64,000 bases of DNA from an uncultured Planctomycetota bacterium (GCA_963845755.1 CAWJTV010000005.1:768001-832000); one strand, 5' to 3'. Positions 34,201 to 62,968 are shown, counted from the first letter of the stretch. Notes: generated by a model from the letters alone, not told the origin. Numbers and translations are program-made.

Positions 34201-35553
34201 ATGAGTCGCCCAATCCGGCATGTCCCGCAACTGAACCGACGACAGGTGATGCGGCTCGCTGCCGCGGGAGCCCTGGGTGCATCCGCATCCGGCTGGATCG
34301 AGGCGCTCGCGGCGGATACGGCCGCACACCCGAGGCGGCACAAGTCGTGCATTCTCCTCTGGATGTCGGGAGGCCCGAGCCAGACCGACACATTCGACCC
34401 AAAGCCCGGCCACGCCAACAGCGGGCCGTTCAAGCCGATCGCGACGGCGGTCCCCGGGCTGATGCTCGGGCCGCACCTGCCGAAGCTCGCCCGACAGGCC
34501 AAGGATCTCGCCATCGTCCGCTCGATGAGTACCAAGGAAGGGGATCATGGGCGAGCGACCTACTACCTGCGAACGGGTTACTTGCCCCAGGGCCCGGTCC
34601 GATACCCGGCGCTCGGCTCGCTGATCGCCAACGAGTTCGATGACGAAGCGGCCGAACTGCCTGGGTTCGTCAGTATCTCCCCGGCCCGGGGGATTAATGC
34701 GGCCGCGTTCACCTCGGGTTTCCTCGGGCCGAAGTGCGCGCCCTTGAACGTCGGCGAGCGGACCCTGGGAAGCGGTGCGGACGCGGGCAGTCCTTCGTTG
34801 CGCGTTGAGGATCTCGACATCCCGCGCGGCATCGGCCGCCCAAGAGCCGACGATCGGCTCGAGCTTATGCGAACTCTGGGCGACGAGTTCCTGGCGAACC
34901 GTCCCGGAGTTCCGACGTCCAGCCACCAGAGTGCCTATCTTCGCGCCGTGAAGATGATGAAGTCGGCGGCTGCCAAGGCGTTTGACCTGGATGAGGAACC
35001 GGCCGCCGTACACGACGCATACGGTCGAACTCCGTTTGGACAAGGTTGCCTGCTGGCCCGCCGCCTGGTCGAGCGAGGAGTCCCCTTCGTCGAGGTCACT
35101 CTCTCTTCGGTTGACGGCAACGCCGCCCTGGGATGGGACACTCACGCGCAGAATTTCGACACCGTCGAGAAACTTTGCGGCGTTCTCGACGCGGGTTGGT
35201 CTACCCTGATGACCGACCTTCGTTCGCGCGGGCTACTCGAGAACACGTTGATCGTCTGGATGGGCGAGTTCGGACGGACGCCCAAGATCAACGAGTCCGC
35301 CGGCCGCGACCATTTCCCGAACGCCTGGTCAACCGTCCTCGCCGGCGGAGGAATTCGTGGTGGCCAGGCAATCGGCGACACCGGAGCCGATGGCGAACAG
35401 GTCAAGGACCGGCCCGTCCTGGTCCCCGACCTGCTCGCGACCGTCGTCAAGGCCCTGGGGATCGACCCGGCCAAGCAGAACATCGAGAGCAACGGCCGGC
35501 CGATTCGCATCGTCGATCCGAAGGCCAATCTCATCAAGGGAATTCTGGGATGA
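34201..35553 (+). CDS. DUF1501 protein
   Basis: RRQVM Tat-like signal, ILLWMSGGPSQTDTFDPKP, WDTH, GEFGRTPKIN. Confidence 0.92.
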   Translation: MSRPIRHVPQLNRRQVMRLAAAGALGASASGWIEALAADTAAHPRRHKSCILLWMSGGPSQTDTFDPKPGHANSGPFKPIATAVPGLMLGPHLPKLARQAKDLAIVRSMSTKEGDHGRATYYLRTGYLPQGPVRYPALGSLIANEFDDEAAELPGFVSISPARGINAAAFTSGFLGPKCAPLNVGERTLGSGADAGSPSLRVEDLDIPRGIGRPRADDRLELMRTLGDEFLANRPGVPTSSHQSAYLRAVKMMKSAAAKAFDLDEEPAAVHDAYGRTPFGQGCLLARRLVERGVPFVEVTLSSVDGNAALGWDTHAQNFDTVEKLCGVLDAGWSTLMTDLRSRGLLENTLIVWMGEFGRTPKINESAGRDHFPNAWSTVLAGGGIRGGQAIGDTGADGEQVKDRPVLVPDLLATVVKALGIDPAKQNIESNGRPIRIVDPKANLIKGILG

Positions 35554-37267
35554 TCGGCTCAACGGCTTTCGTCCTCCTCACTCTGGCCGCGGCGCCCTCC
35601 CAGGAACACGCGCCGGCCGAACCGGGGAGTGATGGAGCGCGCCACTTGATCTTCCTCGCGGATCACCGACCCGTCTTCGTACGCCTGCGGGTTACGTCCC
35701 AAGGCCGGCCTTTCGAGGCGTCCTGGATCAACTCGGTCCGGACGCTTCACGCCAGCCTCGACCGTAATGCTGACGGTAAACTGACCACCAAGGAAGCCGA
35801 CCCAAAAGTCCTCGGTGCACTCGTGCGTCTGGCGACGGGAACGGCTGCGGTCTTCACGCTCGAAGGGCTGGATGCCCACCCGAAAGATGGTGTCGTCTCG
35901 ATCGACGAGTTGGCCGAAGCTCTCCTGCCGATCCTGGGGCCATTCCGTCTCCAGGTCGGCCGGCAGGCGATCAGCCGCACCGACTGCGCTCTTCGATCAG
36001 CTCGACCGCGATAAGGACGGCGCGCTCACCCGGCCCGAGTTGGGGGCGATTGCCGGATCACTTCGGCCGCTCGATCTCGACGATAACGAAATGATCACCC
36101 CCGACGAACTTGAGCCGTTCAACAGCCCGGCGCTGACCGCAATGCTCGACGAATCATCCGACCGGCGAGCCCGCTTCACCGCACTCCCGCCGGTCGTCGA
36201 GCTTGTTGCCGAGGAGTCGTCGCTTCGTCCGGCCCGGCTCCTGCTCAAGAAGTATGACAAGGCGCCGGCCGACCGTCCGGGGAGGCTCGACAACAAGCTG
36301 TCGATCGAGGAATTCGCCCTCGAGCCCGACGTCTTTGCCAGGGCCGATACCAACAAGGACGAGGCATTGAACACGCAGGAGCTTCGAGAGTTCCTCACAC
36401 GAATGCCGATCGATCTGACGCTCGATGTCAGCATGAGTTCCGAAGGTTCGGGCAAGGCGACGGCCCGCGTGGCAGACGGCGGCGCCCTGCCGAAGGGAGT
36501 TCAGGTCCGACAGCTCGCCGACGGTGATCTCGAGATCGCGATCGGTCAGGTACGGCTCGATATTCTCGTGGAAGAGGCAAACGTCGCGGCTCGCTGAGAC
36601 TCGTCGAGTGCTCGACCAGCGATTCAAGGTCACCGACAGCAACAAGAATGGATACCTCGAAGGCAAGGAACGAACTTCGATCGATGCTCCTCAATCGCCG
36701 CTCGCCGGTCTGTCGGATGTCATCGACCGGGATGGCGACGGCAAGATCTACCTGAAAGAACTGCTTGCCTTCGGAGAGCGCCAGGCCGACGCTGCGCGAA
36801 GCCGATTGGTCGTGACGACGGCCGACCAGGGCCGCGCGATTTTCGGCATTGTGGACCTGGACCGAGACCGTCGTCTCGGTGCTCGAGAGGTGATGCGCAC
36901 CGTCGACCGGGTCATGTCGTGGGATGGCGACAGTGATGGACACGTCTCAGCGGACGAGATCCCCTATCACTTCCGGGTCACCATCGCCCGAAGTGGGCTT
37001 CCCGGTCTGACGGGTGATCTCGGCGCCACGGCCACGCCACGGTCGATGGGCGCGAAGCAATCCACCGGTCCCACGGCCGGTCCGGACTGGTTTCAGAAGA
37101 TGGACCGAAACCACGACGGTGACGTCTCTCATCGCGAGTTCCTGGGTCCCCGCGACGAATTCGACCGTCTCGACCGGGACAAGGACGGCCTGGTCGACCC
37201 CGAGGAAGCCCGGGAGCCTACGGCGCCGAAGACGAAGGACGCCCCACGGAACACGAGCCGCCCGTAG
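35550..37267 (+). CDS. secreted multi-EF-hand protein, two frameshifts
   Basis: Many DxDxDGxL motifs (DRNADGKLT, DRDKDGALT, DSNKNGYLE, DRNHDGDVS); ATGA-coupled to the DUF1501 gene. Confidence 0.85.
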
Positions 37268-37536
37268 GTCGAGGGGGACCTCCTCGAAAAAGGGCGGATG
37301 AAGAAGGGAGGGGATAGAATCCGCGGACCTGGCGTTCTCGACCAGAAATGATGACTGACCTAATGGGCGTCATGGCTGGATCGATGAGCTGGAGTCCCGG
37401 CGTCAGCCGTTCTTCTCTCGCCTGATGGCGGGACTCCAGACTGCGTATCGAGGATTGACTGATCGCTCGTCGGGCCCTGGCTGCCCGCTGTGGGTAAACC
37501 ATGGGTCTCTCGGAGATCTTGACGGGATCGAGAGGC

Positions 37537-38071
37537 TCAGGACGACTTGCCCGCGGCTTTCGGGCTCTCCGCCGGTTTCGCGGCCGGTGCGACCTCGGTC
37601 GCCGGGCTGCGCTTTCTCTTCCGCGAGGCGGCGATAGTAACGCTCCAGGACGGTGCGGTACTCGGGCGGGAATCCCTCGGACATCGACTGGAGGATGCGG
37701 TCCCGCTCGCGGTCAGAAAGCTTGGCCCAGTCCTTGTTGTTCTCCCTGGGGTCCACGAGGGCGCCAATGCCGCCCGTGCCCCGGCGGATCCGCGAGTCGT
37801 CCATCCCACGAGTGGGATTGTTGGCCTTCATGCCACGGCACTCATCACACTTCTTTTCCAGAGAAGAGATGAGTTTGTCCAGTTCGCCGAGGATCACCTT
37901 CTGCTCGGTCTGCACTGGCTTGCCGGTCTCCTTCCGATTGAGTTCGTCCGTTACGCCGGCCATCTTCGCGGTGATCGCCTCGGCCGGCGGCTCGGCCCGA
38001 AGGGCGGGTTGGAGCAGGAACGACATCAAACCGGTCGCAACCAGCATGGGAAGTTTGCGTCTCATCATCAC
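37537..38071 (-). CDS. secreted hypothetical protein (planctomycete family), probable frameshift near 37605
   Basis: Signal peptide; WAKLSDRERDRILQSMSEGFPPEYRTVLERYYRRLA; the true end is 37537 or 37403. Confidence 0.7.
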
Positions 38072-38176
38072 CTCGTAGTCTCGGGGTCAGAGAAAACAGC
38101 TCGAATCGCTTTCCCACTCGAGCCCACCTCGTCCAGGTCGCCCTGAACGATTGGCTCGGTAAACGTCGTCGATGAT

Positions 38177-40075
38177 TCACTGAGAGTTGTCATCGGGGAA
38201 CGGCAGACGCTCCGCGATCTTCGCGAGCGACTCGCGAATCTCGTCTTGCGTGACTTCCAGCGTCTCGACCTCGTGCCGGACGGCCGGAGGCAGCGTGGAT
38301 GCGGCGGGGCGGGACTTGTCGACCCCGACTGTGTCGTCATTGAGCCGCGCCTGGATCATCCGCACCATCTTGAGCTCGGCGATCAGACGATTCAGCTCGC
38401 GCTCGCGTTCCCTCGGGTCCGAGGAGAGGGGCGAGCCCGGCGTCGGTGGCGTGGTTGACGGGAGCCTGCGGATCGACTGGGCCAGACCGAGCAAGTCTTC
38501 CTCGATTCGGGTCTCCATCGCGACCGTGCGAAGCGAACCGTCGCCTTCCTTGAGCCAACCCTCGATGCGACGCATCTCGCGCGAAAGGATGCGAAGCGTC
38601 ATCGGCAGGGCGATCCCATACTCGGTCTCCTCGACCAGGGCGAGCAAGTGCTCGGTGCGCTCGCCAAACTCGGCCTCGTTCTTCGATAGGCCGGCCAAGG
38701 TGATCAGGGCCGTCCGCGATTTCTGCAGGACGCGTGGCGCCTGGGCCTGGGTGGTCTCGCGGACCGACAACTGAAGCTCGTGCATCTCGGTCAAGTCGAT
38801 GATGAGGCGGGACCGGAGTTCGGAGCGAAGCTCGACCAGCAGCCGCTCGATCGACTGGAGGAACTCATCGCGCGACTTCACCAGAATTTCCAGCGCGGCC
38901 GACTGGTCTTCGGCCGCCGTCCCGGCCGTCGTCTTGCCGAGCCTCTGCTCGGCCGACCGCATCGTGGCGCTGGCGCGGATCAGGTCTTTTCGCAAGGCAA
39001 TGCCGACGTCGCCCAGCCGCACCGAGGTGGCATCGAGCCGTTCCGCCGCGCCACGGTTCTTGGCTTGATCGTCCTCGCGGCGCCGGAACTCGGCCTCAGC
39101 GATCGTTCGCCTGGTCTGCCCTACCTGCTCGTCGAGACGAGCGAATTCCTGACGAAGGAGGCCGAGTGCCTGATCCTCGGCCGCGATGGCGGCTGGGACG
39201 TCGGCTTTTGCCAGGGCAGTCACCGCCTCGCCCAGGTGGGTGTCGGCGCGCCGCAGGTGAGGCGGCTGGAGGTCGGCGAACAACGGGTCGTTGGCGAGGG
39301 CGGTCGCCGCCGAGCGAAGTTTGACCTGGCGCTCCCGGATCGCCGCGCAGGCTTGCTTGGCCGGCTCATCTGCGGTCTTCGACGCCTTCCTGGTGTCATC
39401 GATCACGGCTTGCTGGTCGCGGACGAGCGTCTCCAACTCGGGCCGGCGCGTTGCGAACCGCTCGAGACGATTGCGTTGCTCCAGAGCGAATCGGGACCAG
39501 CCCAACTCGCGACGCTCTTCCTTGACGATCCGTTCGAGCTGGCCGAGTGTCTCGCGCATCTGGCGGAGCCGCGCCAACTTGAGCTGAAAGTCGAGGTCCT
39601 CGGCGAGCAGCAGAGTGCGGAGGTGTTCCAGCTTGGCGATCAGCTCCTTCACCTCCGTCTCCGCCTTGCTGAGCTGAGCGTCCTTCAAGAGCTTGTGCGT
39701 TTCCCGCATCTGGTCGAGAATCTGCTCCTCGCGCGAGAATTTCAGGGCCAGACGGAGCCGCGAGGAGTTCTCCGGCTCGAGACCCAGCAGGGCCTCGGAG
39801 AGCCGGAACATCCGTTCCTCGAGCTCGTTCATCTGGGCCGCAACGTTCTCCTGATTGAATCCAATCGTGTCGCGATCGGACGTGGCGGGAGCCTTCTTCT
39901 CGGCAGCCTTCTTGTCATCGGTCTTCCTCTCGTCATCGAAGACCGAGGCCGCTTTGCCCGATGACTTCGTCGTCTGGGCCAATCCTGCCGACGAGATTAC
40001 GGCGCCCGTCATGATGATCATGAGAGCCAACCGTGCGATCGTTCTCAAGCAGCGATGAGTGCTATGGCTTGCCAT
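38177..40075 (-). CDS. secreted coiled-coil protein
   Basis: 632-aa ORF, signal peptide, long heptad-rich helices; may extend by frameshift to 38068 and couple with the next gene. Confidence 0.75.
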   Translation of the reverse strand: MASHSTHRCLRTIARLALMIIMTGAVISSAGLAQTTKSSGKAASVFDDERKTDDKKAAEKKAPATSDRDTIGFNQENVAAQMNELEERMFRLSEALLGLEPENSSRLRLALKFSREEQILDQMRETHKLLKDAQLSKAETEVKELIAKLEHLRTLLLAEDLDFQLKLARLRQMRETLGQLERIVKEERRELGWSRFALEQRNRLERFATRRPELETLVRDQQAVIDDTRKASKTADEPAKQACAAIRERQVKLRSAATALANDPLFADLQPPHLRRADTHLGEAVTALAKADVPAAIAAEDQALGLLRQEFARLDEQVGQTRRTIAEAEFRRREDDQAKNRGAAERLDATSVRLGDVGIALRKDLIRASATMRSAEQRLGKTTAGTAAEDQSAALEILVKSRDEFLQSIERLLVELRSELRSRLIIDLTEMHELQLSVRETTQAQAPRVLQKSRTALITLAGLSKNEAEFGERTEHLLALVEETEYGIALPMTLRILSREMRRIEGWLKEGDGSLRTVAMETRIEEDLLGLAQSIRRLPSTTPPTPGSPLSSDPRERERELNRLIAELKMVRMIQARLNDDTVGVDKSRPAASTLPPAVRHEVETLEVTQDEIRESLAKIAERLPFPDDNSQ

Positions 40076-40540
40076 CGAAAAACCTCGTGCCTGCGAGTCT
40101 TCCGAGACTTCTTGGCGACCTCGAGGACATTCTGCTCGATTCTGAGAACTCTGGCCATCGAATTCTCGACGACGCCAACCGTCTTACTTTCGTCGAAGGT
40201 AGGAGTTGATTGCAAGGGAAATCTTGACGATTTGTTGGAATGCGTCCAGGAATTCCGAGGGCCAGGGCGCAACCCATTTCAGGGCTCCGGGGGAAGCCCC
40301 AAAACCGCGACTCGTCGGATGCCCCCGAGGCGGGCATCGATGCGCGATCTCGAAGCAGGAAGGCCGATGAGTTCCGGAATGACCTCGGGCGGGGCGCGGC
40401 AATCGGGATCGCCCAGGCCTGACGGATTCGCACTGTCGCTCCTCTCGGCCTTGACTCGGGCTGCACTGCACGATAACTTCCGTCGCGGCTCGCCCGGACA
40501 TATCGGGCAGGTCGCCCCACGTCATAGAGGGAACGATGCG

Positions 40541-40789
40541 ATGCCAGACTTTCTCGACCTGCGTCGGCGTTTCCCGTCTCAGTTGGAAGTGACTCGACTT
40601 GTGGAGGAAGCCATCGATCCGCTAGAGATCGAGCTCAGCCGTGCTGAACTCCAGCGATTACGCGGCAAGCTCAAGAGCGAGATGCTCAGGCGCTACCTGG
40701 AGATCGCCGAAGAGAAAATCATGGCTCTCACCGAGGTTACATCGCCATCAGGGATCGATGAACCGTTAACCATGCGGACGGCCGGTTAG
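40541..40789 (+). CDS. small helical hypothetical protein (82 aa), convergent with the caspase gene
   Basis: MPDFLDLRRRFPSQLEVTRLVEEAID...; AGAGGG RBS; TTGACT-17 nt-TAACTT upstream (40451-40479). Confidence 0.6.
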   Translation: MPDFLDLRRRFPSQLEVTRLVEEAIDPLEIELSRAELQRLRGKLKSEMLRRYLEIAEEKIMALTEVTSPSGIDEPLTMRTAG

Positions 40790-42808
40790 TGGCATCTCCT
40801 TCTCATCCGGCTCGCGATACGTCTTTTTGAGTTTCCGCGCCGTCGCGAGGAACACGCACCCCACGTACGCGCTGCGGTCCACGACTTTGACTTCCTGGAA
40901 GCCCGCTTCTTCCAAGAATGACACAGCCTGCACTTCCGTGTAGCGTCTGATGAGGGGTACCATCTCCCGGTTTCTCGCGCGGGCACGCTCGAAGAGTTCC
41001 TTCTTCCTCTCCCATTCGCCCTTCTGTTCCAGGCTGCTCTGGATCTGCCGGAACAGCCTTTCCACGTCGGTCGTCTCGTCGGACGTTGACAGGGAAAGGA
41101 TGCCATCGTACTTCAAGACCCGTCGGATCTCCTTGAGGCATTCCACCGGCTCGTCCAGGGCAAAGAGCACATTCATCATCACGCAGGCGTCGTAAGTCTC
41201 GTCCGCGACACCCGTGAAATCGCCGTTCCCACTCTGGTCATTCGACGATTCCCTCCCACTTAACGCACTGACGCAGTCGCAATGGCTGATGAATGTCCGG
41301 GTCAGGTAATCTTCCCGGCTCGACAGTTTGTCGTGGAGTTTCCGGAGCATGTGGTAGTTGATATCGATGGCGTCTACTCGCCGGGTCGGCGAGGTTTCGA
41401 GGAGCCGGATTGTGGTGCTACCCGTGCCCGCACCGACGTCGAGACAATACTGGGCATCACCAACCAGGTCGGCGACCCGCTTAACGAGCTCTCGGTTCTT
41501 CTCGAAATCGGCGATGATCTCGTCGTAGCAGTCGGCGTAGCGGGACCACAATTCCTCGCGCTGCATTCCGTCCTTGAGCCGCGCCCAAAGCGCAGCCGGT
41601 CGCTCGGCGTAAGTCATGTTTAGAGTCACACACCAATTCCCGCTATCGTCACGTAGCAGTGACGCGAGTTTGACGAACTCGACCAAGCCCAGTCGTCGGG
41701 TTCTTAACACCAATCGCTCCGAGTGGACACGAGGAACCTTGTCGGGCGGCGCACTCGGCGGGAAGTCACGCACCGATGTGGGTCGTACTTCATCTTCCCA
41801 GTTCTCGAGTTGGGTTAGAAAGGTCTGGACATGACTGCCGCGCCGCAGCTTGAGAGGCTCGCCGATGAGGCTTTGAAACGCGGAGTTCCAATGCAGGAAC
41901 CGAAACTTACGGTCGAGGATATACGTTGGGGCGAGGTTGTCCAGCAGCGGGCTTTCTTCCCAGATGCAGAACTCGGCCGGATGGTGTTCGCCCTCAAGAT
42001 CGGTGATCGGTGCGACTACCATGTCAGGCGACGTCGCGTTCTTCACGAAAAGCCGCGGTGTCTGCAGGCAGCCATCTTCCTGCACGCTCTTGTGGATGTG
42101 CCGGAACAGGTTGTTCACGGTGATCAGGCCGAGGACGTTTGAATCGGGAACGGCCCTGGTCATCGCCACTCTTCCCTCGAGTCCGGTGACGAGGTGCTTC
42201 GTGAAGACTCCGAGGCCGGCCTTGGTGTCACCGAAGGCCCGCTCGCCCGCCGAGCACGCCGTCATCAGATAGACGCCTTCTTCTACCGATTTGGACTCCA
42301 GCTTCTCGGCGAGCACTGCACGCTGGATCGCTGTGGCGGTTTGTTCCTCGAAGCGCTGGTCCGAGAAATCCATGGTCCCCTTCGGTTCAAGGCAGTTGCC
42401 CACGGCGCCGCTGTAGCAACAATCCAGCAGCATCAGCACGCGCCGGCACCGAGAGTGTTCGACGGTTTCCAGCACATCGTCGAACGAGACCCGACGATGG
42501 TGGTTAATCTCGTCGGTATCATTGGCGGCAAAGTGGAGGCGAAGCCTGTCATCCAGAAGGCCGTGGCCGGAAAAATAGATGAGGATGAACTCGGGAGCCG
42601 TGCTGAGCGTGGCGAGCGCTGCGATCCGATCCAGGATGGCTGTGCTCGAGTTATCGATCATCGGGTCCCCGACCTGGAACGCCCCACGTTGCTTGCTTTC
42701 CAGGACGACTTTGAGACGGCGAACGTCGTTGACCGGCGTCTCCAGGTTGCGGAGGCTCGGGTAATGGGGAAAATGTCCGTTGGCGATGAGGATGGCATGT
42801 CTGCCCAT
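40766..42808 (-). CDS. caspase-family (peptidase C14) - PAS-like - class I SAM methyltransferase fusion
   Basis: YFSGHG (His82) and LDCCYSG (Cys131); PTYILDRKFRFLHWNSAF PAS-like motif; LDVGAGTG, IDIN and YDACVMMNVLF methyltransferase motifs; ORF intact. Confidence 0.88.
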   Translation of the reverse strand: MGRHAILIANGHFPHYPSLRNLETPVNDVRRLKVVLESKQRGAFQVGDPMIDNSSTAILDRIAALATLSTAPEFILIYFSGHGLLDDRLRLHFAANDTDEINHHRRVSFDDVLETVEHSRCRRVLMLLDCCYSGAVGNCLEPKGTMDFSDQRFEEQTATAIQRAVLAEKLESKSVEEGVYLMTACSAGERAFGDTKAGLGVFTKHLVTGLEGRVAMTRAVPDSNVLGLITVNNLFRHIHKSVQEDGCLQTPRLFVKNATSPDMVVAPITDLEGEHHPAEFCIWEESPLLDNLAPTYILDRKFRFLHWNSAFQSLIGEPLKLRRGSHVQTFLTQLENWEDEVRPTSVRDFPPSAPPDKVPRVHSERLVLRTRRLGLVEFVKLASLLRDDSGNWCVTLNMTYAERPAALWARLKDGMQREELWSRYADCYDEIIADFEKNRELVKRVADLVGDAQYCLDVGAGTGSTTIRLLETSPTRRVDAIDINYHMLRKLHDKLSSREDYLTRTFISHCDCVSALSGRESSNDQSGNGDFTGVADETYDACVMMNVLFALDEPVECLKEIRRVLKYDGILSLSTSDETTDVERLFRQIQSSLEQKGEWERKKELFERARARNREMVPLIRRYTEVQAVSFLEEAGFQEVKVVDRSAYVGCVFLATARKLKKTYREPDEKEMPLTGRPHG

Positions 42809-42837
42809 GGTTGATCCAGGTCGGCGGCTTTGCCGGG

Positions 42838-43252
42838 TTATTCAGCCAACGTGACGAGACCGCTGACGCTATGAACCAGAGCGGCCCAGTTTTCGAGGGC
42901 CGATGTTGCCTGGTCACGGGTTAGCCCCGCGCGGTGAACGTCAAACATTTTGTGTCATCATCGACGTGTAAGTTATAGTGAATCTCGGCATTATCGGCGT
43001 TCGGCTGGACCGCGCGGATCGCCTCGATCAGGGACACCAGAGCACCGCCCGATGCAACGATGGCGAGAGCGGTCAGGGAGACTGATTCGGCCTTACTCTC
43101 GACGAACTCCGCGACAGGTGGCGTCTCACTGGGGGGGGCGACTTGTTGGATGCCTGCCGCATCTCGTAGCAAGTTCCGGAGGTTTGACGCCTGCCGAATC
43201 AAGACATCGCGCGAAGTGTGCGCGACTGAAGTTCGAGCGTGATATGCTGCAT
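42838..43252 (-). CDS. EACC1-like small protease-partner protein, about 137 aa after joining two apparent frameshifts
   Basis: MQHITLELQSR(fs)RDVLIRQASNLRNLLRD...PP...ESKAESVSLTALAIVASGGALVSLIEAIRA...EIHYNLHVD...LTFTARG(fs)LTRDQATSALENW; ends 29 bp before the caspase ATG. Confidence 0.68.
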
Positions 43253-43639
43253 GATAACGCCCTTGATCATGCGGTGAAAGGAGATGGCATCTTCTTCACT
43301 CACCATCGAGACTGCCATCCTGCGCCGCGATCGGTATCTGCGGGGTCGATAACCTGCGACGGCTAGATCGAGCGACGCCGACCAGCGAATGCGGCCGCGC
43401 CGCCGGCATATCGTGACCCCAGCACACGAATCGAAGTTTGCGGGGCGGCACATGTTACTTCTTGATTTGAAACCAAAGCGGCTGCGCGGGTCAAGCTACT
43501 GCCCGTTTTTTCCCGCTCTGCATGACCACCCCGTCCGCTTGTGCAGTCACCTGGAACCCATCGCGGCGACGCAAGCAGATGGAGTTTCCACGGTCACGCG
43601 ATGTGACAATCTGGAGACGTGGAAGTCGTTCGTTGTTCC

Positions 43640-43905
43640 TCATCTCGGCTCTGACTCGTCGGGCGCGACGGGGACCAGGGGTGGTCGGCGCCATACTGGT
43701 ACTTCTTCGCCAGGTTCTCGTGATGGTCCGCGAGCCCTGGGTCCTCCGAAGGCGAGGACCGGATCATCTCAGCCATCTGACCGTGAGACGCGGCCAGCCG
43801 CATGAAATGGGCCGTCCGCTGCCAGAATGTGAGAGCCCCGAGCACCAGGGCGACGAACAGCACCACGATCATCCTCCGCCGCGTCGTCATCCGGGCGAGT
43901 CGCAT
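43640..43905 (-). CDS. small membrane-anchored protein (Isosphaeraceae ...KY..A..PW.PV.PD family), frameshift near 43675
   Basis: MRLARMTTRRRMIVVLFVALVLG...HHENLAKKYQYGADHPW(fs)PVAPDESEPR. Confidence 0.65.
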
Positions 43906-43928
43906 GGGTGCTCTCCGGTTCCATGCGG

Positions 43929-44414
43929 TCATCCTCCGCCGTGGGCGAGGTACGCCTCGACCATCAGGACGTTCGGCCCCGCCCGCTTGATCACCGCCAG
44001 CCGCGTCTCGGCGCTGGAGACCTCTTCCAGTTGCTCGTTGACGAACCACTGGAGGAAGTTCTTGGCGATGTGGTTCTTCTCCGTCGTCGCCAGCTCCACC
44101 AGGTCGTAGATCTGCCGGGTCGTCCGCAGTTCCGAGTCGAGAGCCAGTTGGACAGCATCCTCGGCGGATCGGAACTCGTTTCGTGGTGCAGCGACCTCGG
44201 GGATCACGACCCTCCCCCCCGCGTCGAGCACGAAACGGACGAACTTCATCGCGTGGTCGCGCTCCTCGTCCGCCTGCTTGAAGAAGATCTTGGCCAACCC
44301 GAACAGACATTCGCGCTCGAAGAACGACGCGATGGCGAGATACTGGTTCGAGTTGCCCAGCTCGTGGCCGACCTGGGCGTTGATGGCTTCATTGAACTTT
44401 TCGCTGATCAGCAT
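43929..44414 (-). CDS. ftnA: non-heme ferritin
   Basis: AINAQVGHE...YLAIA...QADEERDHAMKF...FLQWFVNEQLEE ferroxidase ligands. Confidence 0.92.
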   Translation of the reverse strand: MLISEKFNEAINAQVGHELGNSNQYLAIASFFERECLFGLAKIFFKQADEERDHAMKFVRFVLDAGGRVVIPEVAAPRNEFRSAEDAVQLALDSELRTTRQIYDLVELATTEKNHIAKNFLQWFVNEQLEEVSSAETRLAVIKRAGPNVLMVEAYLAHGGG

Positions 44415-44790
44415 GGCTCGCCTTTCTTGGACGCGAGTCGTTACGGGATGACGAGGGGTCGGGACCGGACCGGATCGCCATGATGGTCTAAACTGCGGAC
44501 GATGCTCTTGGGTAGCGTTGCACGGGTCTGAGTTCACTTTACTGACGTCAGAAAAAAAAACCAGTGATGGCAACCGTGACTCGGATTTGAGGTAGGTCGA
44601 GATTTCCCGGTCGGACCGCCGACTATCGCCAAAGGGCTCCTGGTTCAGAAGCAAGAACCCGAACTCATACTCAGACACCTCATTATGAAAACAATGCTTG
44701 CGTGCATTGACGTGAAAGGGTTCCCGGTGGTTCGCGGTCAAGTCGAAACGATCGGCGATCATGAGACGGGATTTCCGGTTGCCAGCAACC

Positions 44791-44843
44791 TTGACAGAGG
44801 TCGCCAACAGCGTTCAAATAACAAACCGACTACTCTGTTTTTT
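44791..44843 (+). promoter_or_regulatory. possible promoter and autoregulatory operator of the TetR gene
   Basis: TTGACA at 44791; imperfect palindrome AACAAACCGACTACTCTGTTT just before the RBS. Confidence 0.35.
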
Positions 44844-44853
44844 GGAGCGGGCG

Positions 44854-45489
44854 ATGAGGACCGTCAGGCAGCCGAGGGCGGTGGAGACGCGGGAGAAGAT
44901 CCTGGGGGAGGCATCGCGCTTGTTCGCCCTGAAGGGCTACCACGATACCAAGCTGGAGGAGGTCCTGAAGGCGGCGCAGGTCACGACGGGGGCATTTTTC
45001 CACCATTTCGGCAGCAAGGAGGAGCTGGGCTTCGCCGTGATCGACCGCCACATGGAGAAGCGTCGACAACTACTGGAGGACATCGAGAGACGCCTGCCGC
45101 CACCGGACCAGGATGACCCGTTGCAGCCGGTGTTCCGGCGACTGGACGCGATTCAGGAGATGATTCGCCGCCGCGAGCAGCGCAAGGGCGGCTGCATCAT
45201 CGGCAATCTCAGCACGGCGCTCAGCGATACCCACGACGCCTTCCGGCGGCGGCTGGCGGAGTGCTTCGAAGAGATGGACCTGGAGTTCAGGCCACACCTG
45301 GCCGCCGCCGCGGTCAAGTATTGCCCAGGGCGGTCCGTGGACGCCGGTGCGTTGGCGCGCTATATCGTGGCCATCGTCGAGGGCTCGATCATGCTCACGC
45401 GCACCCAGCAAGACCGGCACATGATGGCGCGCCACTTCGACTACCTGAAGGAGCACCTGAAGCAATCGCTCTGCGTTCACGGCTCATGA
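44854..45489 (+). CDS. TetR/AcrR-family regulator (NemR/LmrA-like)
   Basis: TREKILGEASRLFALKGYHDTKLEEVLKAAQVTTGAFFHHFGSKEEL; GGCIIGN. Confidence 0.92.
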   Translation: MRTVRQPRAVETREKILGEASRLFALKGYHDTKLEEVLKAAQVTTGAFFHHFGSKEELGFAVIDRHMEKRRQLLEDIERRLPPPDQDDPLQPVFRRLDAIQEMIRRREQRKGGCIIGNLSTALSDTHDAFRRRLAECFEEMDLEFRPHLAAAAVKYCPGRSVDAGALARYIVAIVEGSIMLTRTQQDRHMMARHFDYLKEHLKQSLCVHGS

Positions 45490-45798
45490 GGGAAGGAATG
45501 TTCGGCCCGGCTCGCCGCTCGTCGAACGCGCGTCGTGCTGGCGGAGGTGTCGCCCGACCGTACATGGCCATGTCAATCCTGGGTAGCGAGGACTCGGGAC
45601 CCATGACGAAGCTGAGCGTGTTCGCGATGTCGTACGAGACAGGATCGACACATGTTGGTACGCCATTTCGATGACCTGAAAGAACGGCTACGGCAGGCTT
45701 GCCAGATCCGGGTCGCTCGAGCCCACTACTCGGGTATGCCGTTTGTTCATGCGGATGGGTTGCCTACGAGACGAACTCCAACTGAAGGATAGAACCCG

Positions 45799-46468
45799 AT
45801 GAAGAGTCGCATTCGCTTCCGTGTCGGCGTGATGGCTTTGGCCGTGGTCGCGGTCGCGGGCCAGTCCTCCCAAAGAGCCGCCGCCCAGGTGCCGGATGAG
45901 AACCGCAAGCAGCTCGTGGAGGCCCTGGGCGCTCCCTTCATCGTTTTCCGCGAAAAAGTCCTGGACGAACTCAAGGTCTCCGACGAGCAGAGGGAGAAGC
46001 TGATGCAGTACATGATGGAGCAGATCATGGAAACCGGCCCATTCCTCGACGCGTTGACCGAGACCGGGCAGGAACGTGAAAAAAAGCTCAACGAGCACCG
46101 GAAGCATGCCAAGGAGAAGCTCGACAAGCAACTGAAGGACGTGCTCCAGCCCGGACAACGGAGTCGGTTGCGCCAGGTGACGCTCCAGCGAGAGGGCAGC
46201 TTTTGCCCTCGGCCAGGAGGACGTCCGGAAAGAGCTGAAGATCACGCAGGAGCAACTGAACCAATTCATGGCCGTGGTGCATGACTTGCAAAAGAAGGTC
46301 GAGCCTCTGGTCAAGGAGGCGCACTCGGGCGGCAATCCGGAAGAGATTCGACCGAAAATCGAGCAGCTCCGCAGGGACCACGCCAAGAAGCTCGAAGCCG
46401 TCCTCACCGACGCCCAGAAAAAGCAGTGGCAAGAGCTGCTTGGCCCACCGTTCGAGCTGGGTGATTGA
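45799..46468 (+). CDS. secreted helical protein (Spy/CpxP-like repeats), frameshift near 46205
   Basis: Signal peptide; ELKVSDEQREKL, VLQPGQRSRLRQ, VLTDAQKKQWQELLGPPF. Confidence 0.7.
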
Positions 46469-46517
46469 TCGGGGTCGTCCCCTCACGATGTTGGCTAGAA
46501 TACTCGGGGGTCCTGCG

Positions 46518-47840
46518 ATGAATGATGGAACAACGCGACGCCGTTTTCTCGAGGGTTCCGCCAGCACCGGGGCGGGGCATATCGCTTTGACTACCTTGAG
46601 CGCCAGTCCCTTCGCAGACGTTGTAGGGGCCAATGATCGGGTGCAGATCGGCGTGATTGGGACAGGCGGCCGAGCTTTGCAGTTGATGGACCATTTGATC
46701 CCCAAACCGAGGGATCCTGTTCAAGCCGGAATTCCGCAATGGAAGACAAAGCACGTGGACGGGGCCGACCTGGTGGCCGTGGCAGACGTCTACGAGCCCC
46801 ATCGCAACCAGGCCGCCGCCAGGGCCGGTCCGAACACGACCAAGTTCCACGACTACCGCATGCTCCTGGATCGAAAGGATGTCCAGGCCGTGATCATCGC
46901 GGCCCCCGACCACTGGCACAAACAAATGCTCCTCGATGCAGTCGCGGCGGGAAAGGACGTCTACCTCGAGAAACCGGTGACCCACACGCTCGAGGAAGGT
47001 CCCGACGAGATCCAGGCCGTGGAGAATAGCGACCGGATCGTGCAGACCGGTACCCAACAACGCAGTTGGCCTCACTACGTCCAGGGCCAACAAATCCTCG
47101 CATCGGGGGACCTGGGCGTCGTGCGGCTTGTGGAAGCCTTCTGGTTCATGAATTACGGCGTGAGAGGAGTCAATTCGCTTCCAAGAAGTCAGGTGCCTCC
47201 GGCCAATCTCGACTGGAAGGCCTGGCTGGGCTCGGCGCCCGCCCAGCCTTTCAATCCGATGAAATTCCGGACATGGCGGCAGTTCTGGGATTTTGGCGGC
47301 GGCAATCTTGCCGACTTGATGACCCATGCGATCGAGACTGTTCACTGGTACATGGAGTGCGACACGCCAACCAGCGCGGTTGGCATCGGCCACACTTACG
47401 ACTGGCCCTTTGAGTGTCCGGATAACCTGAGTTGTACGCTGGAGTATCCCAAGGGATTCCTGGTGACTTATGCGGGCTGCCACACGATGGGAATGGATTT
47501 CGGCAGCATCGTCTTCCACGGCTCCAAGGCGACCCTGGAAATCAGCCGGGCCGCTCTGGCTCTCTACGAAGAGGATCGCGGCCGAGGCTGGCCGAAGTTC
47601 AACCGGGCCGAACGGCGCTGGCGGCCGGAGCCCAAGATCTATGTCGAATCCGAGCACGAGGGGACCTCTGACCATCTGCGCAACTGGCTGGAATGCATCC
47701 GCAGCCGGAAGCAGCCCAATGCTCCCATCCGGGTCGGCGTGGCCGCCGCGCGGGCGGCCCATATTGGTAACGCGGCCCTGCGCAGTGGAAAAAAAGTCAA
47801 GTGGGACGAGAAGCAGCAGAAGTTGGTCTTCGCCGAATAG
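46518..47840 (+). CDS. Gfo/Idh/MocA oxidoreductase, Tat-exported
   Basis: TRRRFL, IGVIGTGGR, PDHWH, GKDVYLEKP, GTQQRS. Confidence 0.93.
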   Translation: MNDGTTRRRFLEGSASTGAGHIALTTLSASPFADVVGANDRVQIGVIGTGGRALQLMDHLIPKPRDPVQAGIPQWKTKHVDGADLVAVADVYEPHRNQAAARAGPNTTKFHDYRMLLDRKDVQAVIIAAPDHWHKQMLLDAVAAGKDVYLEKPVTHTLEEGPDEIQAVENSDRIVQTGTQQRSWPHYVQGQQILASGDLGVVRLVEAFWFMNYGVRGVNSLPRSQVPPANLDWKAWLGSAPAQPFNPMKFRTWRQFWDFGGGNLADLMTHAIETVHWYMECDTPTSAVGIGHTYDWPFECPDNLSCTLEYPKGFLVTYAGCHTMGMDFGSIVFHGSKATLEISRAALALYEEDRGRGWPKFNRAERRWRPEPKIYVESEHEGTSDHLRNWLECIRSRKQPNAPIRVGVAAARAAHIGNAALRSGKKVKWDEKQQKLVFAE

Positions 47841-47868
47841 AAGAACGGCGCACGAGAGGAGCAACTCC

Positions 47869-48513
47869 ATGAGTCGGGGCAGGGTTATCATACTGTCGCT
47901 GGCAATCGGAATCGTCGTGGCTGGCATCAGCATGCTCGCGCCAATTCGCGCCGACGACACGGCGGCTTTCAAGCCGCTCTTCAATGGCAGGGATCTCGAA
48001 GGCTGGGAGGCGACCAGGCCGGAGTTGTGGAGCGTCAGGGACGGCATGATCATCGGCAAACAGGGCAAGAATCAGCTCAAGAAAAACACATTCTTGGCAA
48101 CCAAGGAAAAATACGCGGACTTCGTTCTGAAGGCCTCGGTTCGACTGGTAAGAGATGAAGGCAACAGTGGCATCCAGTTCCGGACAAGAATCCTGCCCGA
48201 TGGCACAGCCAGGGGCTATCAGGCCGACGTCGCCAAGGGATACTGGGGCCTGCTTCTGGAGGAAGGCAGCCCGAAGCGACTCATCATCGAGCGGCCTGCT
48301 CCCGAGGCCGTGAAGAAACTGAAGCCCGACGAGTGGAACGAATATGAGATCACCGCCAAAGACCACCACATCACACTGGTATTGAACGGAATCAAGTCCG
48401 TCGATCTGGAAGACACGTCGGGAGACCTCAACGGTGTCGTCGCGCTCCAGCTCCACGTAGGGCCGGTGATGGAGGTGCAATTCAAGGACATCAAGATCAA
48501 GGAATTGGAATAG
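47869..48513 (+). CDS. DUF1080 / 3-keto-disaccharide hydrolase family
   Basis: LFNGRDLEGW, GNSGIQFR, GYQAD, EWNEYEI, G.VALQLH, V.FKDIKIKEL. Confidence 0.9.
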   Translation: MSRGRVIILSLAIGIVVAGISMLAPIRADDTAAFKPLFNGRDLEGWEATRPELWSVRDGMIIGKQGKNQLKKNTFLATKEKYADFVLKASVRLVRDEGNSGIQFRTRILPDGTARGYQADVAKGYWGLLLEEGSPKRLIIERPAPEAVKKLKPDEWNEYEITAKDHHITLVLNGIKSVDLEDTSGDLNGVVALQLHVGPVMEVQFKDIKIKELE

Positions 48514-49140: not shown

Positions 49141-52100
49141 TCACTGGACGCCGGGGAAGATGATGTGAATCTCGCCGCGGCGGCTGTTCTCGTTCAGCCA
49201 TCGCAGAAAAAGCTCTCTCCTGCTTTCCCTGGTCCTATTGCTCGACTTTGTCATCATCCTCTTTCTGAAGGCGGTACTATCAAATTCGCCCTTGTAAGTG
49301 GGGTAGCTGGGCACGATTTGCGTCAAGGACTCCAATGAGAAGTGCCCGTTCAGATAGCCATCCGCCAGTAGATCCGTTGTCTCCTCGGGAGTGAAAAACT
49401 CGCTCAGCAGGATCAGAGGGCAACTCGACTCCCTGCAACGATCAATTCTTCCCAGCAATGCTTCTCTAAAGTACTGCCTAAGTTCTTTACTTACCTTTTT
49501 ATAAGTTATATTATTTGATATATAGATATGAGAATATTTTAAGGAAAGAGATGGATCGCTCGTAAAGTCATGGGCGGCGATGAGGTCGGGGGCAAGCTCA
49601 CTCCATCTGGCGTTGGATGGATCCAAGTCGATCAGCACATCGGCAGCGAAGTATCTCTGCCAGATTGCCCGCCCCTTGTCAGCGGCTATCTCCCACATCC
49701 GGGCTGAGAACCCTGGGTCATGTTTCTGCAGGATCGACGAAGCGAAGTCGGCTCCGGGTTCGGTTGGATAAGAAGCACCGAACCCTGGTCGTTTCGATCC
49801 CTTCTTGATGGGAAGAATCTGAAGGTAGAGGCTGTCCCGGATGTCGGGATGCGTGGGCATGAGTGCAGCACTGTAACGCATAATTTTATATGCATTATTA
49901 TCCCTCTTTGCGTCGGCAAGCTCGCTCTCCAGCATGGGGTCGATCCAGAAGCGGAAGGATTTCATGTTGTCGATCGCCTCCATGGAGGCGAGTCCCATCC
50001 GGAATTGATCGGCTAACAACGTCGCCCTGACATACTGACTCACGACGACCGGGAATACGCATGATAATGCGATGATGAACAGGGCGGAAATCAAGCCGGC
50101 TCTGTGCTTCCTTGAGGCGGCTCGCAACATGCGACGCTCCAATGGGCTCCACTTCGCTTTCCTAGTCAGCGCGAGAATGCCGAGCCACTCCGAGAAGCTG
50201 GGCAGGCTTTGCCTCCTCGGATTTGCGCCCCATACTCTCGCCGCTTCGGCGAGCCGGATCTCTGCCTTTCCCCTGCGGGTCTGCCGCTGTTTGCGGCTCA
50301 GCCACTCGCGCAGGGAGTGGACCAGATAATCGTGGCTCAACTGGTAATAACGCTCTCCAGTCCTCAGACTTGATTGATCGTCGTCTGAACCTTCCGGGTC
50401 CGTCGGCGTGATCAGTCGAAGATCCTGGTCGAGGATTCGGATCAAGTCTTCGAAGTCCCTGGGACGGTTTGCATAGCCCGATGCGTCGAGCAACTCGTGG
50501 CGTGATCGCATCTCCCCTTTGATGTCGGTGCCGGTCTCGGGCAACAGGGTTTTCAACACCGCCTGCGCCGGCTTCTGGTGGAAGCGGTGCTTGGGGTTGG
50601 CCTGGGGGGAACTGAACGCCTCGTCGAGGAACGTGGCGCCCACGCCCTCGGTGCCACCGACCTCCCTCAAGGTCGCCGGAGTCCAGGGCTTCCCCTTGAC
50701 CATCTCGGCGAACAGGGCGAGCCGCACCGAGACCACCTTACCGTCCTGGGCCAGCTCGTCGATCGTCTGGTCCAGGAAGGCGTGCTGATCCCTGGAGAGG
50801 TCGGCCGTACGATCAGGCAGATTCCCATAGGCGGTCCCGAAGGCGGAAAGCACCTTGCGTGCATGGCGACGGTCGAAAAGATCGACGGCAGCCGTGTTCT
50901 GCCCCTTGAGGAGTTCGACTTCCAGGGCATCCATGAACCGGGTCGCCGCCATCCAGAAATCATCCCGCACCATCACGATGGCCTGGACATGCTCGCCGTC
51001 GCATTGCCTCAAGGCAGCGACCAGTTCCGTGTTCCCCTCCCCACGGCTGGCATGGAGCCACTGCTCGAATTGGTCCAGAACCAGGAGCACTTTCCGACCG
51101 GAGCGGAGCAGCCGTCCCGAGCGGATCGCCGCCAGGGAACCGACCAGACTGACCTCCGCCGGCAAGTCCGGACTGACCTTCCGGAGCCCTCTCAGCAGCC
51201 GATTCTCCGTGTCCTCCGGGGTCGCCTCGATGTACACGGGCGAGACGTACTTCGCCAGACGAGGGAGCAGACCAGCCTTGACCATCGAGGACTTCCCGCA
51301 CCCCGAGGGACCGTAGATCAGCCCGACGCGGAATGTACGGTCAGGATCGGTCGTCTCGATGCGGGCTTTCCAGAAGCGGATGCTGTCGGGCAGACCGTCG
51401 CGGTCTCTCGGTCCCGGGAGCAATTCCAGGAAGAAGTCGGCGTCTTGATCGTCAAACGATCGCAGCCCCTTCGGGACAATCCTGATCGGGTGCAAGTCCG
51501 AGTCGGGAGCCTGGGGAGTGATCGGTGGCGGGGTGACCTCCCGGGGCGAGCCAGTGGGCAGATTGGCGGCGGCGCCGGGCGACACCGGGAGCGCGGGACT
51601 GACCTCATGATCCAGGAAGTAGCGAAGGTCTTCCGCCATGTCCCTGGCGGTCGTGTACCGCTCGGACGCCCGCTTCGCCAGCGCCTTCAAGCAGATCCGT
51701 TCCAGTTCCCTGGGGATCGTATCGTCGATCTGGCGAGGTGGGCGAGCCTCAGCCTGAGTCACCTGCTCGATGATCTCCCGCAACGAATCGCCCCGGAATG
51801 GTCTTCTCCCCGTCAGCATCTCGTACAACACGACTCCCAGGCTAAAGATGTCCGAACGCCCATCGACCCGGTGACCCTCGCCTCGTGCCTGCTCGGGACT
51901 CATGTAGGATGGCGTGCCAGCCAGTCTCCCGCTTCTGCCGGAATCCTCGTCTTTGAGCGCCAACCCGAAGTCAGCGACACAGGGCTTGCCCGAGGCATCG
52001 ATGAGGATGTTGGCGGGCTTGATGTCCCGGTGTACGAGTCCCTGGGTGTGCGGCGTAATGGAGCGCCTCGGCGACGATGGCGACGAGTTCCGCCGATTCG

Positions 52101-52565
52101 CGGAATCCGGGGCGAGCCTGTCCCATTCTGACCGCCAGATCGCTGCCTTCGACGAGCTTCGAGACCACGAAGCAGAGCCCGTCTTCCGTGCGACCCACGT
52201 CATGAACTGGCACGATATGGGGATGGTCCAGCTTGGCGAGGATGCGAGCTTCGTTCAGATACGACTCCATATCCTCGGGATGGGCGATACATCCGGGGTT
52301 CGGAACCTTGATCGCGACCGGACGATCGAGGTCGTCGTCGTGCGCGAGGTAGACCCGTCCGAATCCGCCCTGACCGAGGAGCCGGGCGATCCGGTAGCGC
52401 CCCAATCTTGATGGGATTGCCTGTCGCTGTTGCTCCGGTGCCGTCGCCAGGCGTCTTCGGAACCTCTGTTCCCGACACGTCTCTTGTCTCGTCCGAGGTG
52501 TAACTGGAGACCTCGACGTGCGGTCGCAGGTCCTCGGTTATAGACGGGTTCTTCGTCTCATCCAT
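49141..52565 (-). CDS. Ser/Thr protein kinase - STAND-like P-loop ATPase - TM - unknown C-terminus, two frameshifts (near 52400 and 52050)
   Basis: LGQGGFGRVY, VAIKVP, HRDIKPANIL, DFGLA, GTPSYMSPEQ; GPSGCGKSS, LDQFEQ, YQLSHDYL. Confidence 0.9.
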
Positions 52566-58170: not shown

Positions 58171-58255
58171 AGCAGGCGACTATCCATCGCCTTTCTCGTG
58201 GTTATGGGCGACTTGGCCCGGCGGTAGGGCAAACTCAACGAGTGAATCGTACGTG

Positions 58256-61637: not shown

Positions 61638-61641
<4 letters not shown>
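59506..61641 (-). CDS. brxHI: Lhr-like DEAD/DEAH helicase BrxHI, roughly ten frameshifts
   Basis: APTAGGKTEA, VIDEIH, TSTLELGIDVGDLD, FLQRMGRTGRR, RNFMELFAVFSSP; GTGA-coupled to brxD. Confidence 0.85.

Positions 61642-62964
<1,323 letters not shown>

Positions 62965-62968
<4 letters not shown>

Follow-up and report, generated by a model that had tools for sequence, protein, structure and literature searches.

The closest described relatives of the locus considered here are the EACC1-caspase systems (EACC1 stands for effector-associated constant component 1), presented by Kaur, Burroughs, Iyer and Aravind 2020 (PMC7159879) as the two-gene "System 4", in which the caspase may carry any of up to 50 alternative C-terminal domains. 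EACC1 itself is described in the text of that paper as having a single conserved hydrophobic helix, with small (Gly) residues clustered at its centre, and short alpha+beta flanks. One pair, EACC1-KrAvs12 of Ktedonobacter racemifer, has been characterised experimentally: according to the main text of Evans et al. 2025 (bioRxiv 10.1101/2025.11.14.688446), the caspase cleaves EACC1 at Asp49 in the linker, the C-terminal fragment is toxic and permeabilises liposomes, and in this one characterised case the C-terminal domains act as sensors. A gene pair of this general layout was found in a stretch of 64,000 nucleotides from an uncultured Planctomycetota bacterium (GCA_963845755.1, CAWJTV010000005.1:768001-832000; hereafter the window, in whose numbering positions are given), with a caspase gene that continues into a PAS-like domain and a class I S-adenosylmethionine (SAM)-dependent methyltransferase.

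The same logic, whereby an adjacent protease fused to a sensor licenses a latent effector, is found in bacterial gasdermins with their protease, in Pepco/Trypco with trypsin, and in MBL nuclease with a protease, modules whose effector and protease families differ from those treated here and for which no homology is claimed. A further described system bears on the C-terminal part: Planctomycetes make N-acyl tyrosines by means of a synthase and a methyltransferase, as reported for the stieleriacine cluster (Kallscheuer et al. 2020, PMC7293339), and clusters with N-acyl amino acid synthases of the FeeM type are known from Van Wagoner and Clardy 2006 (as cited in PMC7293339).

The reading that we favour, at a probability of roughly 0.75, is that the locus is a two-gene EACC1-caspase protease-effector module, and a rare variant of it, seen in about 25 proteins, with a PAS-methyltransferase as its regulatory region. 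What was observed is which domains are present, that catalytic and SAM-binding residues are conserved, that the two genes stay paired and that a synthase gene is linked to relatives. As in the described system, a small 5' gene for a protein with one hydrophobic helix and a small-residue patch is followed, after 29 nt, by a 3' gene for an N-terminal caspase with a variable C-terminus, the best family of which is the EACC1-associated type. Unlike canonical EACC1, the subfamily of the window is divergent, lies below the Pfam cut-off and has K-A-E in place of K-G-D before the helix; unlike the described EACC1 caspases, the protease here is followed by PAS and class I methyltransferase domains. The hosts also differ, being Planctomycetota, Acidobacteriota, Verrucomicrobiota and one gammaproteobacterial metagenome-assembled genome (MAG), whereas the EACC1-caspase system otherwise occurs mainly in Actinobacteria.

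An initial annotation of the window had called the pair a candidate new conflict system, on the premise that EACC1-caspase pairs are predicted immunity or cell-death modules with variable sensors. Kaur 2020 and Evans 2025 support the cleavage of a membrane-active EACC1 by the protease, with variable sensors at the C-terminus. The claim of a new system was overstated: the EACC1-caspase system is known, and experimentally characterised in Ktedonobacter, and what is new is the PAS-methyltransferase sensor variant. Its architecture had been thought uncharacterised, and indeed in neither Kaur 2020 nor Evans 2025 does the main text refer to a methyltransferase or a PAS domain in an EACC1-caspase context, although the supplements may list it; among the papers searched, the one that contains EACC1, caspase and methyltransferase together uses the last in an unrelated context. 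That EACC1-caspase modules are protease-licensed pore-formers was shown only very recently, and the present variant offers a sensor of tractable chemistry, with a PAS fold and an intact SAM-binding methyltransferase.

The features of the large gene are as follows.

40766..42808 (-), caspase-PAS-methyltransferase gene, an uninterrupted open reading frame (ORF) of 680 codons (680 aa, start MGRHAILIAN)
42008..42808 (-), caspase-like domain, aa 1-267 (Pfam, NCBIfam, invariant GHG and DCC, Foldseek, AlphaFold2 (AF2))
42563-42565 (-), codon of His82
42416-42418 (-), codon of Cys131
41606..41950 (-), PAS fold, aa 287-401 (AF2 models, Foldseek; Pfam PAS_8/PAS_4 weak)
41510-41599 (-), long linker helix, aa 404-433, directly after the PAS fold (AF2 model)
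40835..41503 (-), class I SAM-dependent methyltransferase, aa 436-658 (Pfam, invariant columns, Foldseek)

The intact frame, the three parts with their boundaries and the catalytic pair His82/Cys131 had all been proposed from the sequence beforehand and were confirmed, the three domains and their boundaries by Pfam, AF2 and Foldseek. At the N-terminus, Peptidase_C14 was matched over aa 3-255 (E 3.9e-12, 46.8 bits, cut-off 21.4), and the best NCBIfam model, by a wide margin, was NF047832, "caspase, EACC1-associated type" (E 3.5e-36, 124.7 bits), aligned over model positions 2-210 of 211, that is, in full coverage; the homologue from a related locus, L009, scored 111.5 bits against the same model. 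The motifs G81-H82-G83 and D129-C130-C131 correspond to the clan CD catalytic His and Cys motifs and were invariant in the 17 family members aligned (17/17), as were His82, Cys130 and Cys131 individually and the GxGTG motif at 459-463; the second Cys of DCC was kept at at least 90% in an alignment of 24 sequences. At the C-terminus, Methyltransf_11 and Methyltransf_12 were matched over aa 456-572 (47 and 47.1 bits, cut-offs 21.2 and 30), together with Methyltransf_23 and Methyltransf_25. Motif I of the methyltransferase reads GAGTG (459-463), with G459, G461, T462 and G463 invariant; D482, N484, D511 and D540 are conserved, and N484, D540 and a set of residues in the PAS region are invariant in the family alignments. 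Judging by these residues, SAM is very likely bound by the methyltransferase.

The AF2 model of the 680-aa protein, built from 17 family members (mean predicted local distance difference test (pLDDT) 83.5, predicted TM-score (pTM) 0.63), consists of four parts: the caspase, a strand-strand-helices-strand-strand-strand unit, a long helix and a Rossmann-type methyltransferase. The Pfam PAS matches to the second of these are weak, and it was assigned as PAS on structure. A separate model of aa 270-440 (pLDDT 79.1) retrieved 28 Foldseek matches at E <= 0.001 (best 9e-5, target TM-scores 0.5-0.65), with PAS domains among the top matches listed (3olo, DosP, LOV, HIF2a/ARNT PAS-B, NifL), and shows the five-stranded antiparallel sheet with flanking helices by which a PAS fold is recognised. 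With the whole model, Foldseek matched MALT1 paracaspase on the protease side and, on the methyltransferase side, yeast Coq5 (4obw), phosphatidylethanolamine N-methyltransferase (8ys9), plant phosphoethanolamine N-methyltransferases, CouO, NovO and SpnF, with E about 1e-10 to Coq5 and related enzymes; as modelled, the methyltransferase fold is of the small-molecule or lipid type. PADLOC matched the protein only generically, with mad2 on the methyltransferase part and with a caspase model, and a search of the ESM Atlas with aa 270-662 reached a best score of 0.75 (a CheR+PAS cluster), under the level of a usable lead.

A flavin-binding PAS of the LOV type was also considered, since LOV domains appear among the fold matches, and was rejected: the flavin-binding Cys motif, which we take to be typical of LOV domains, is not among the conserved residues.

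The small gene lies directly 5' of the caspase gene on the same strand, with its reading divided among three frames.

42838..43252 (-), EACC1-like small gene, about 138 codons, three frames (frames and alignment with relatives)
43252-43202 (-), piece 1, from the ATG at 43252; N-terminal strand
43202-42921 (-), piece 2, a 93-aa ORF with TTG start; Pro-rich linker, hydrophobic helix with small-residue patch, two strands
42948-42838 (-), piece 3, C-terminal helix, TAA at 42838
43221..43225 (-), approximate 5' frame break, near 43223; one base short compared with relatives; frame overlap
42925..42928 (-), 3' frame break, within four consecutive G; a near-identical metagenome contig has one extra base
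42809..42837 (-), spacer of 29 nt between the small-gene stop and the caspase-gene ATG (42808)

The ORF list of the window shows this gene as the TTG-started 93-aa ORF alone, and the initial annotation rightly took it for a longer gene split by the ORF track, 29 bp upstream of the caspase gene. A HMMER search of 1.84 billion representatives found seven relatives of the small protein (E 2.7e-8 to 5.2e-4), all of them intact and 130-168 aa long, which exceed the 93-aa match by about 20 residues at the N-terminus and about 25 at the C-terminus. All three pieces align with these intact relatives, and both missing ends are present in other frames: the frame from the ATG at 43252 encodes a short strand that aligns with the N-terminus of the relatives, and the frame ending in the TAA at 42838 encodes a helix nearly identical to the C-terminal helix of the relative P0027, while the alignment of the subfamily hidden Markov model (HMM) begins at residue 26 of the piece 42924-43295. 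Therefore the gene was reconstructed as one of about 138 codons with two one-base deficits. Programmed frameshifting was considered and rejected as the source of the two breaks, the seven relatives and the partner genes of five related loci being single open frames.

The identification of the reconstructed protein as EACC1 held at the level of profiles, not at the Pfam cut-off. For the comparison, 32 upstream ORFs scoring at or above the threshold of the Pfam EACC1 model, PF19953, were aligned (A3) and set against the window subfamily of nine sequences (A4): hhalign gave a probability of 99.2% (E 1.3e-19) over 126 columns, essentially the whole domain, and in a control the same subfamily profile reached 0.3% against an unrelated PAS profile. 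When the HMM from A3 was searched against all six-frame pieces of the window, the small-gene piece was the only match (E 0.0018); on six-frame pieces of seven loci, the partners of related caspase fusions scored 63 bits (L065), 43 (L014), 39 (L090) and 22 (L012). PF19953 itself gave 15.5-19.2 bits for three of the seven intact relatives, 17.7 bits for the partner ORF of L014 and 16.6 for that of L065. The translation contains a hydrophobic stretch of about 20 residues with S-G-G-A, a helix that matches the "unusual patch of small residues" in the EACC1 description of Kaur et al., and in the profile alignment the K-A-E conserved before this helix in the subfamily aligns with the K-G-D of canonical EACC1. 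On these comparisons, the small protein is classed as a divergent EACC1, homologous at profile level.

The related loci were collected mainly by alignment-based scans. A word-indexed search of 5.8 billion clusters returned 25 proteins at E <= 0.001, of which 15 had both caspase and methyltransferase families and two, matching in the caspase only, carry the NCBI name "caspase, EACC1-associated type"; five further fused proteins and a stand-alone PAS-methyltransferase of 418 aa came from a search with aa 270-680. The current names of these proteins are only "methyltransferase domain-containing protein" or "UbiE". The gene was found in none of 40 relatives of the genome of the window at E <= 1e-10, one of the same genus included, and is sporadic, as is usual for conflict genes.

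Nine caspase-fusion loci had DNA context: the window, L012 (an Urbifossiella MAG), L013 and L014 (Acidobacteriaceae MAGs), L065 (a Verrucomicrobiales MAG), L090 and L091 (metagenome contigs), L009 (a Planctomycetales MAG) and L167 (a gammaproteobacterial MAG). The partnership of the two genes, on which the initial annotation depended, is conserved: an EACC1-like gene lies directly upstream in all six fusions that lack a TIR domain (the window, L012, L013, L014, L065 and L090), with the same strand and layout throughout. It is absent in the three fusions with a C-terminal TIR (L009, L091 and L167), the TIR being recognised by TIR_2 in L091 and L167 (53-66 bits) and by PADLOC/NCBIfam TIR-like matches in L009; in L091 the caspase and the PAS-methyltransferase-TIR are encoded in two overlapping ORFs. 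This distribution (6/6 against 0/3) suggests EACC1 and TIR as the effectors, with the PAS-methyltransferase as the regulatory part common to all. The sample is small, but the pattern fits a natural effector swap in which either EACC1 or TIR is combined with the same protease-sensor chassis.

Among related caspases more generally, the upstream ORF matched EACC1 in 65 of 98 loci at E <= 0.05, and was at or above the EACC1 cut-off in 53 of 98 (hand counts). The post-caspase regions of 46 other caspases with verified EACC1 upstream contained FGE-sulfatase (11), Lcl_C (4), AAA_11/12 helicase-like (3) and PAP2 (2) domains, DnaJ_C, FtsK, TPR, HEAT, GUN4 and a second caspase once each, and no family at E <= 1e-6 in 20; neither methyltransferase nor PAS followed the caspase in any of the 46. 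A few related caspase loci have another kind of upstream ORF, encoding a Uma2-family endonuclease, a BrnA antitoxin or a ThsB-like TIR protein (L042:3473-3982, L073:3692-3946, L121:205-588). A second, distant caspase-domain gene is present on the same contig as the window, at G000:C5:198007-198570 (L011), within a 707-aa open frame, with E 4.8e-5 to aa 26-213.

The PAS-methyltransferase also occurs as an enzyme of its own. Just upstream of the fusion in L009 is a stand-alone gene for a PAS-methyltransferase, its product 27% identical to the fused copy, which is itself preceded by a gene for a FeeM-like N-acyl amino acid synthase. A scan with the PAS-methyltransferase alignment found four more stand-alone genes, in L170 and L172 (Pirellulaceae), L171 (Planctomycetia) and L173 (Gemmataceae), and in all five stand-alone loci (L009/L164 and L170-L173) a FeeM-like gene lies directly upstream on the same strand. 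By blastp these synthases are relatives of the one in L009, mostly at E 1e-12 to 1e-17, that of L171 weakly (about 1e-5); against the Pfam FeeM model, L009, L172 and L173 score at or above the cut-off, L170 reaches 21 bits and L171 gives no match. A FeeM-like gene also precedes four of the nine caspase fusions (L009, L065, L091 and L167), and was not found upstream of the window gene, L012, L013, L014 or L090 within the available flanks. A second PAS-methyltransferase was not found in the genome of the window.

The stand-alone proteins are about 33-37% identical to the C-terminal region encoded in the window, and fused and stand-alone forms have the residues for SAM binding, and many others, invariantly in common, so that the fused copy probably keeps the same binding chemistry. 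The window gene resembles FeeM clusters in that its stand-alone relatives lie directly downstream of FeeM-like genes, and differs from them in being fused to a caspase and having no adjacent synthase; the methyltransferase of the stieleriacine cluster is described as SfmM2-like (PMC7293339). The synthase linkage points to a small-molecule/SAM-binding sensor, and as the PAS-methyltransferase is a sister of FeeM-linked enzymes, a lipid-like small molecule as ligand or substrate is a better lead than the SAM level.

The two-gene unit of synthase and PAS-methyltransferase was seen in Planctomycetota MAGs at L170:2268-5140, L172:2350-5047, L173:2233-5052, L171:1948-5035 and L009:1493-3495, in many cases with an unexplained extension of about 180-300 aa at the N-terminus of the synthase. 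The unit looks like an undescribed small-molecule pathway, perhaps for the methylation of N-acyl amino acids.

How the module might work is proposed by analogy with the characterised EACC1-KrAvs12 pair, from which cleavage, pore formation, trigger and a role in defence are all carried over. The upstream small protein would be laid out as an N-terminal autoinhibitory part, a linker and the hydrophobic helix. A signal reaching the C-terminal PAS-methyltransferase region would activate the protease, which would cut EACC1 in the linker ahead of the hydrophobic helix, at a site that we would guess to be after the Glu of K-A-E; the freed C-terminal fragment might then oligomerise into a membrane pore and kill the cell. 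The PAS-methyltransferase would be the sensor, recruited from stand-alone enzymes that work with FeeM-like synthases, and would most likely bind SAM and a lipid-like small molecule. A more specific version, which we advance tentatively and consider rather unlikely, has an endogenous lipid signal operating the death switch made of caspase and EACC1 (or caspase and TIR): the PAS-methyltransferase would derive from an enzyme acting on what a FeeM-like synthase makes, the fused copy would bind or turn over that N-acyl amino acid with SAM, and the accumulation of this compound, its loss or its failed methylation would license the protease. Failed methylation could follow if an invader drained SAM or blocked the pathway. 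Were this true, the locus would be a metabolite-gated pore or NADase suicide system, joining chemistry of the secondary-metabolite or quorum type to programmed cell death, and, if the link to the ligand holds, one of few bacterial death modules gated by a self-made small metabolite instead of a phage protein.

Several observations weigh against the EACC1-caspase module with a PAS-methyltransferase sensor. PF19953 did not match the 93-aa or the 124-aa piece of the window at E <= 10, nor the locus in a six-frame search of the whole genome, and its curated cut-off of 23.6 bits was reached by no member of the subfamily; an NCBIfam scan of the small-gene pieces yielded nothing useful, and PADLOC had no match for the small protein. 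The A3 HMM matched the partner in L013 weakly (E 0.023, 11.8 bits; another E value for the L013 partner was 7e-4). In the large protein, the NF047832 score lies below that model's curated cut-off of 140 bits, and in a formal family test the PAS models remain under theirs (PAS_8, E 0.017, 15.4 bits, cut-off 21.8; PAS_4, E 0.029, 15 bits, cut-off 23.1). There is no FeeM-like homologue at 36000-48000 of the window, and the only FeeM-like gene of the genome sits on another contig, C34. The immediate neighbours (a ferritin, a TetR and a DUF4175-like gene) look like housekeeping genes. In the text of Kaur 2020 (PMC7159879), the variable C-terminal domains are viewed as effectors freed by autoproteolysis, not as sensors. 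Finally, an intact reading frame of the small gene is absent from the assembly, with its two one-base breaks, and the module may be dead in this strain.

The last point is the core of the alternative that survives best, namely that the locus is a decaying remnant, with two real frameshifts in the EACC1-like gene, selected perhaps because a pore-former is toxic, and only the large gene surviving. Two breaks within 415 nt next to an intact 2043-nt gene agree with decay. Contigs of four soil-metagenome runs were aligned to 42300-43600, with a coverage that left the 5' break and 43145-43600 outside. One contig of 162 nt from the run X1 spans 42782-42942 with no substitution and one gap, a G inserted behind 42927; this extra base sits precisely where the 3' frame is broken, and when the codons are read through it the 93-aa ORF runs on into the C-terminal helix, and therefore the 3' break would be an assembly error or a strain difference. 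The contig has a depth of 3.2, and below 5 a difference that only one contig shows may be an error. At 43083 and 43084 a second X1 contig has other bases than the window, so that X1 may be a very close strain and not the same DNA, which leaves room for decay in the organism of the window itself. Against decay, the assembly (completeness 87.9%, 49 contigs) has further frame splits nearby, in an EF-hand gene and in the BREX ORFs, as is typical of assembly indels. Taken together, decay is doubtful, although it retains an appreciable chance, and we put the chance that the living organism has an intact small gene slightly above even; the nature of the module is unaffected by the question of the breaks.

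A different division of labour would make the methyltransferase a second effector or working enzyme: the membrane protein EACC1 would sense, and the caspase would cut itself free and release the methyltransferase onto a cellular or invader target. This is how C-terminal domains were understood in the 2020 description, all SAM motifs are kept here, and some members add TIR, a typical effector, at the same end of the protein. In the experiments on one EACC1 pair, however, it is EACC1 that is the death effector and the protease substrate (bioRxiv 10.1101/2025.11.14.688446), the fold is that of a small-molecule or lipid methyltransferase and not of an obvious killing enzyme, and TIR and EACC1 are mutually exclusive among the fusions, which together render this arrangement distinctly unlikely.

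The remaining alternatives depend on the genes around the module, which are the following.

38177-40075, DUF4175-like coiled-coil protein, an immediate neighbour
43929-44807, ferritin, an immediate neighbour
49144-52203 (-), Ser/Thr kinase-nSTAND1 NTPase fusion, 1020 aa (PD-T4-6-like kinase, E 3e-48)
57237-58256, PDC-S36-like gene adjoining the Mrr gene (E 2.2e-51)
58259-59182, Mrr-type type IV methyl-directed restriction enzyme (PADLOC E 3.4e-78)
about 60448-64000 and beyond, BREX (bacteriophage exclusion) system (L193:4448-18958, equal to G000:C5:828448-842958)
20961-22211 (-) and 53489-54802 (-), transposases of ISAZ013-type DDE and DDE_3, which flank the wider region

The initial annotation had suggested that the PAS-methyltransferase senses the level of SAM or S-adenosylhomocysteine (SAH), for example when phage SAM-degrading enzymes defeat BREX or restriction-modification, and then fires the caspase. 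The invariant SAM-binding motifs, the sensor role of the C-terminal domain in the one characterised EACC1 caspase (in the main text of Evans et al.) and the presence of BREX and a type IV restriction enzyme 15-17 kb away are in its favour, and the distance of 16 kb to BREX that had been given was essentially right (about 17 kb, BREX starting at about 60.4 kb). Beyond this distance nothing connects the module with BREX: the gap is filled by unrelated genes and transposases, and no BREX gene or methylation system is linked to the caspase at the eight related fusion loci (flanks up to 4 kb). Moreover, bare sensing of SAM would need neither a conserved PAS fold nor the substrate-side residues held in common with the stand-alone enzymes, which are tied to N-acyl amino acid synthases in five of five loci. 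SAM/SAH-level sensing found no specific support, the comparison favouring a lipid-like ligand, and in this form it is very unlikely; the two ideas can be combined if a bound metabolite is left unmethylated when SAM is drained. That the pair is no death or defence module at all, but serves an N-acyl amino acid pathway as a biosynthetic or regulatory enzyme whose caspase processes a small membrane protein for housekeeping, would suit the FeeM-like synthase linkage of relatives and the housekeeping neighbours in the window, and is highly improbable given an EACC1-caspase pair of a kind with experimentally shown toxicity (bioRxiv 10.1101/2025.11.14.688446), the TIR of some members and the sporadic occurrence (0/40 relatives).

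TetR and oxidoreductase genes complete the immediate neighbourhood of the EACC1-caspase pair, and the kinase-nSTAND1 gene, 6 kb away, is likely a separate conflict-system gene. The kinase-nSTAND, Mrr and BREX genes form a defence island 6-17 kb from the module. None of the eight related fusion loci (flanks up to 4 kb) had a neighbour in common with the window apart from the pair itself; the comparison of seven of them with the window showed nothing shared beyond the pair and the FeeM-like gene, which the window locus lacks.

The BREX genes comprise BrxHI, PglZ, PglX, BrxC, BrxB and BrxA. Their ORF structure looks scrambled by frame errors: the PglZ ORF has the start of BrxD fused on, PglX lacks the first ~395 model positions, BrxC is divided between two ORFs, and a single ORF holds BrxA and BrxB together with the N-terminus of BrxC. 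The EF-hand repeat gene at 35133-37267 (+) appears to be spread over three overlapping frames (ORFs 35133-36014, 35815-36597 and 36524-37267), with EF-hand motifs in all three and Pfam matches on two of the pieces, which implies two more frame breaks, probably assembly indels. A signal peptidase S26 domain at 16495-17946 (-) is split over two adjacent ORFs (model positions 40-111, then 129-165), which could mark one more frame break. At 3900-4688 (-), 36 kb from the module, lies the gene for a SAM hydroxide adenosyltransferase (SAM_HAT_N and SAM_HAT_C), a host SAM-cleaving enzyme probably unrelated to the module.

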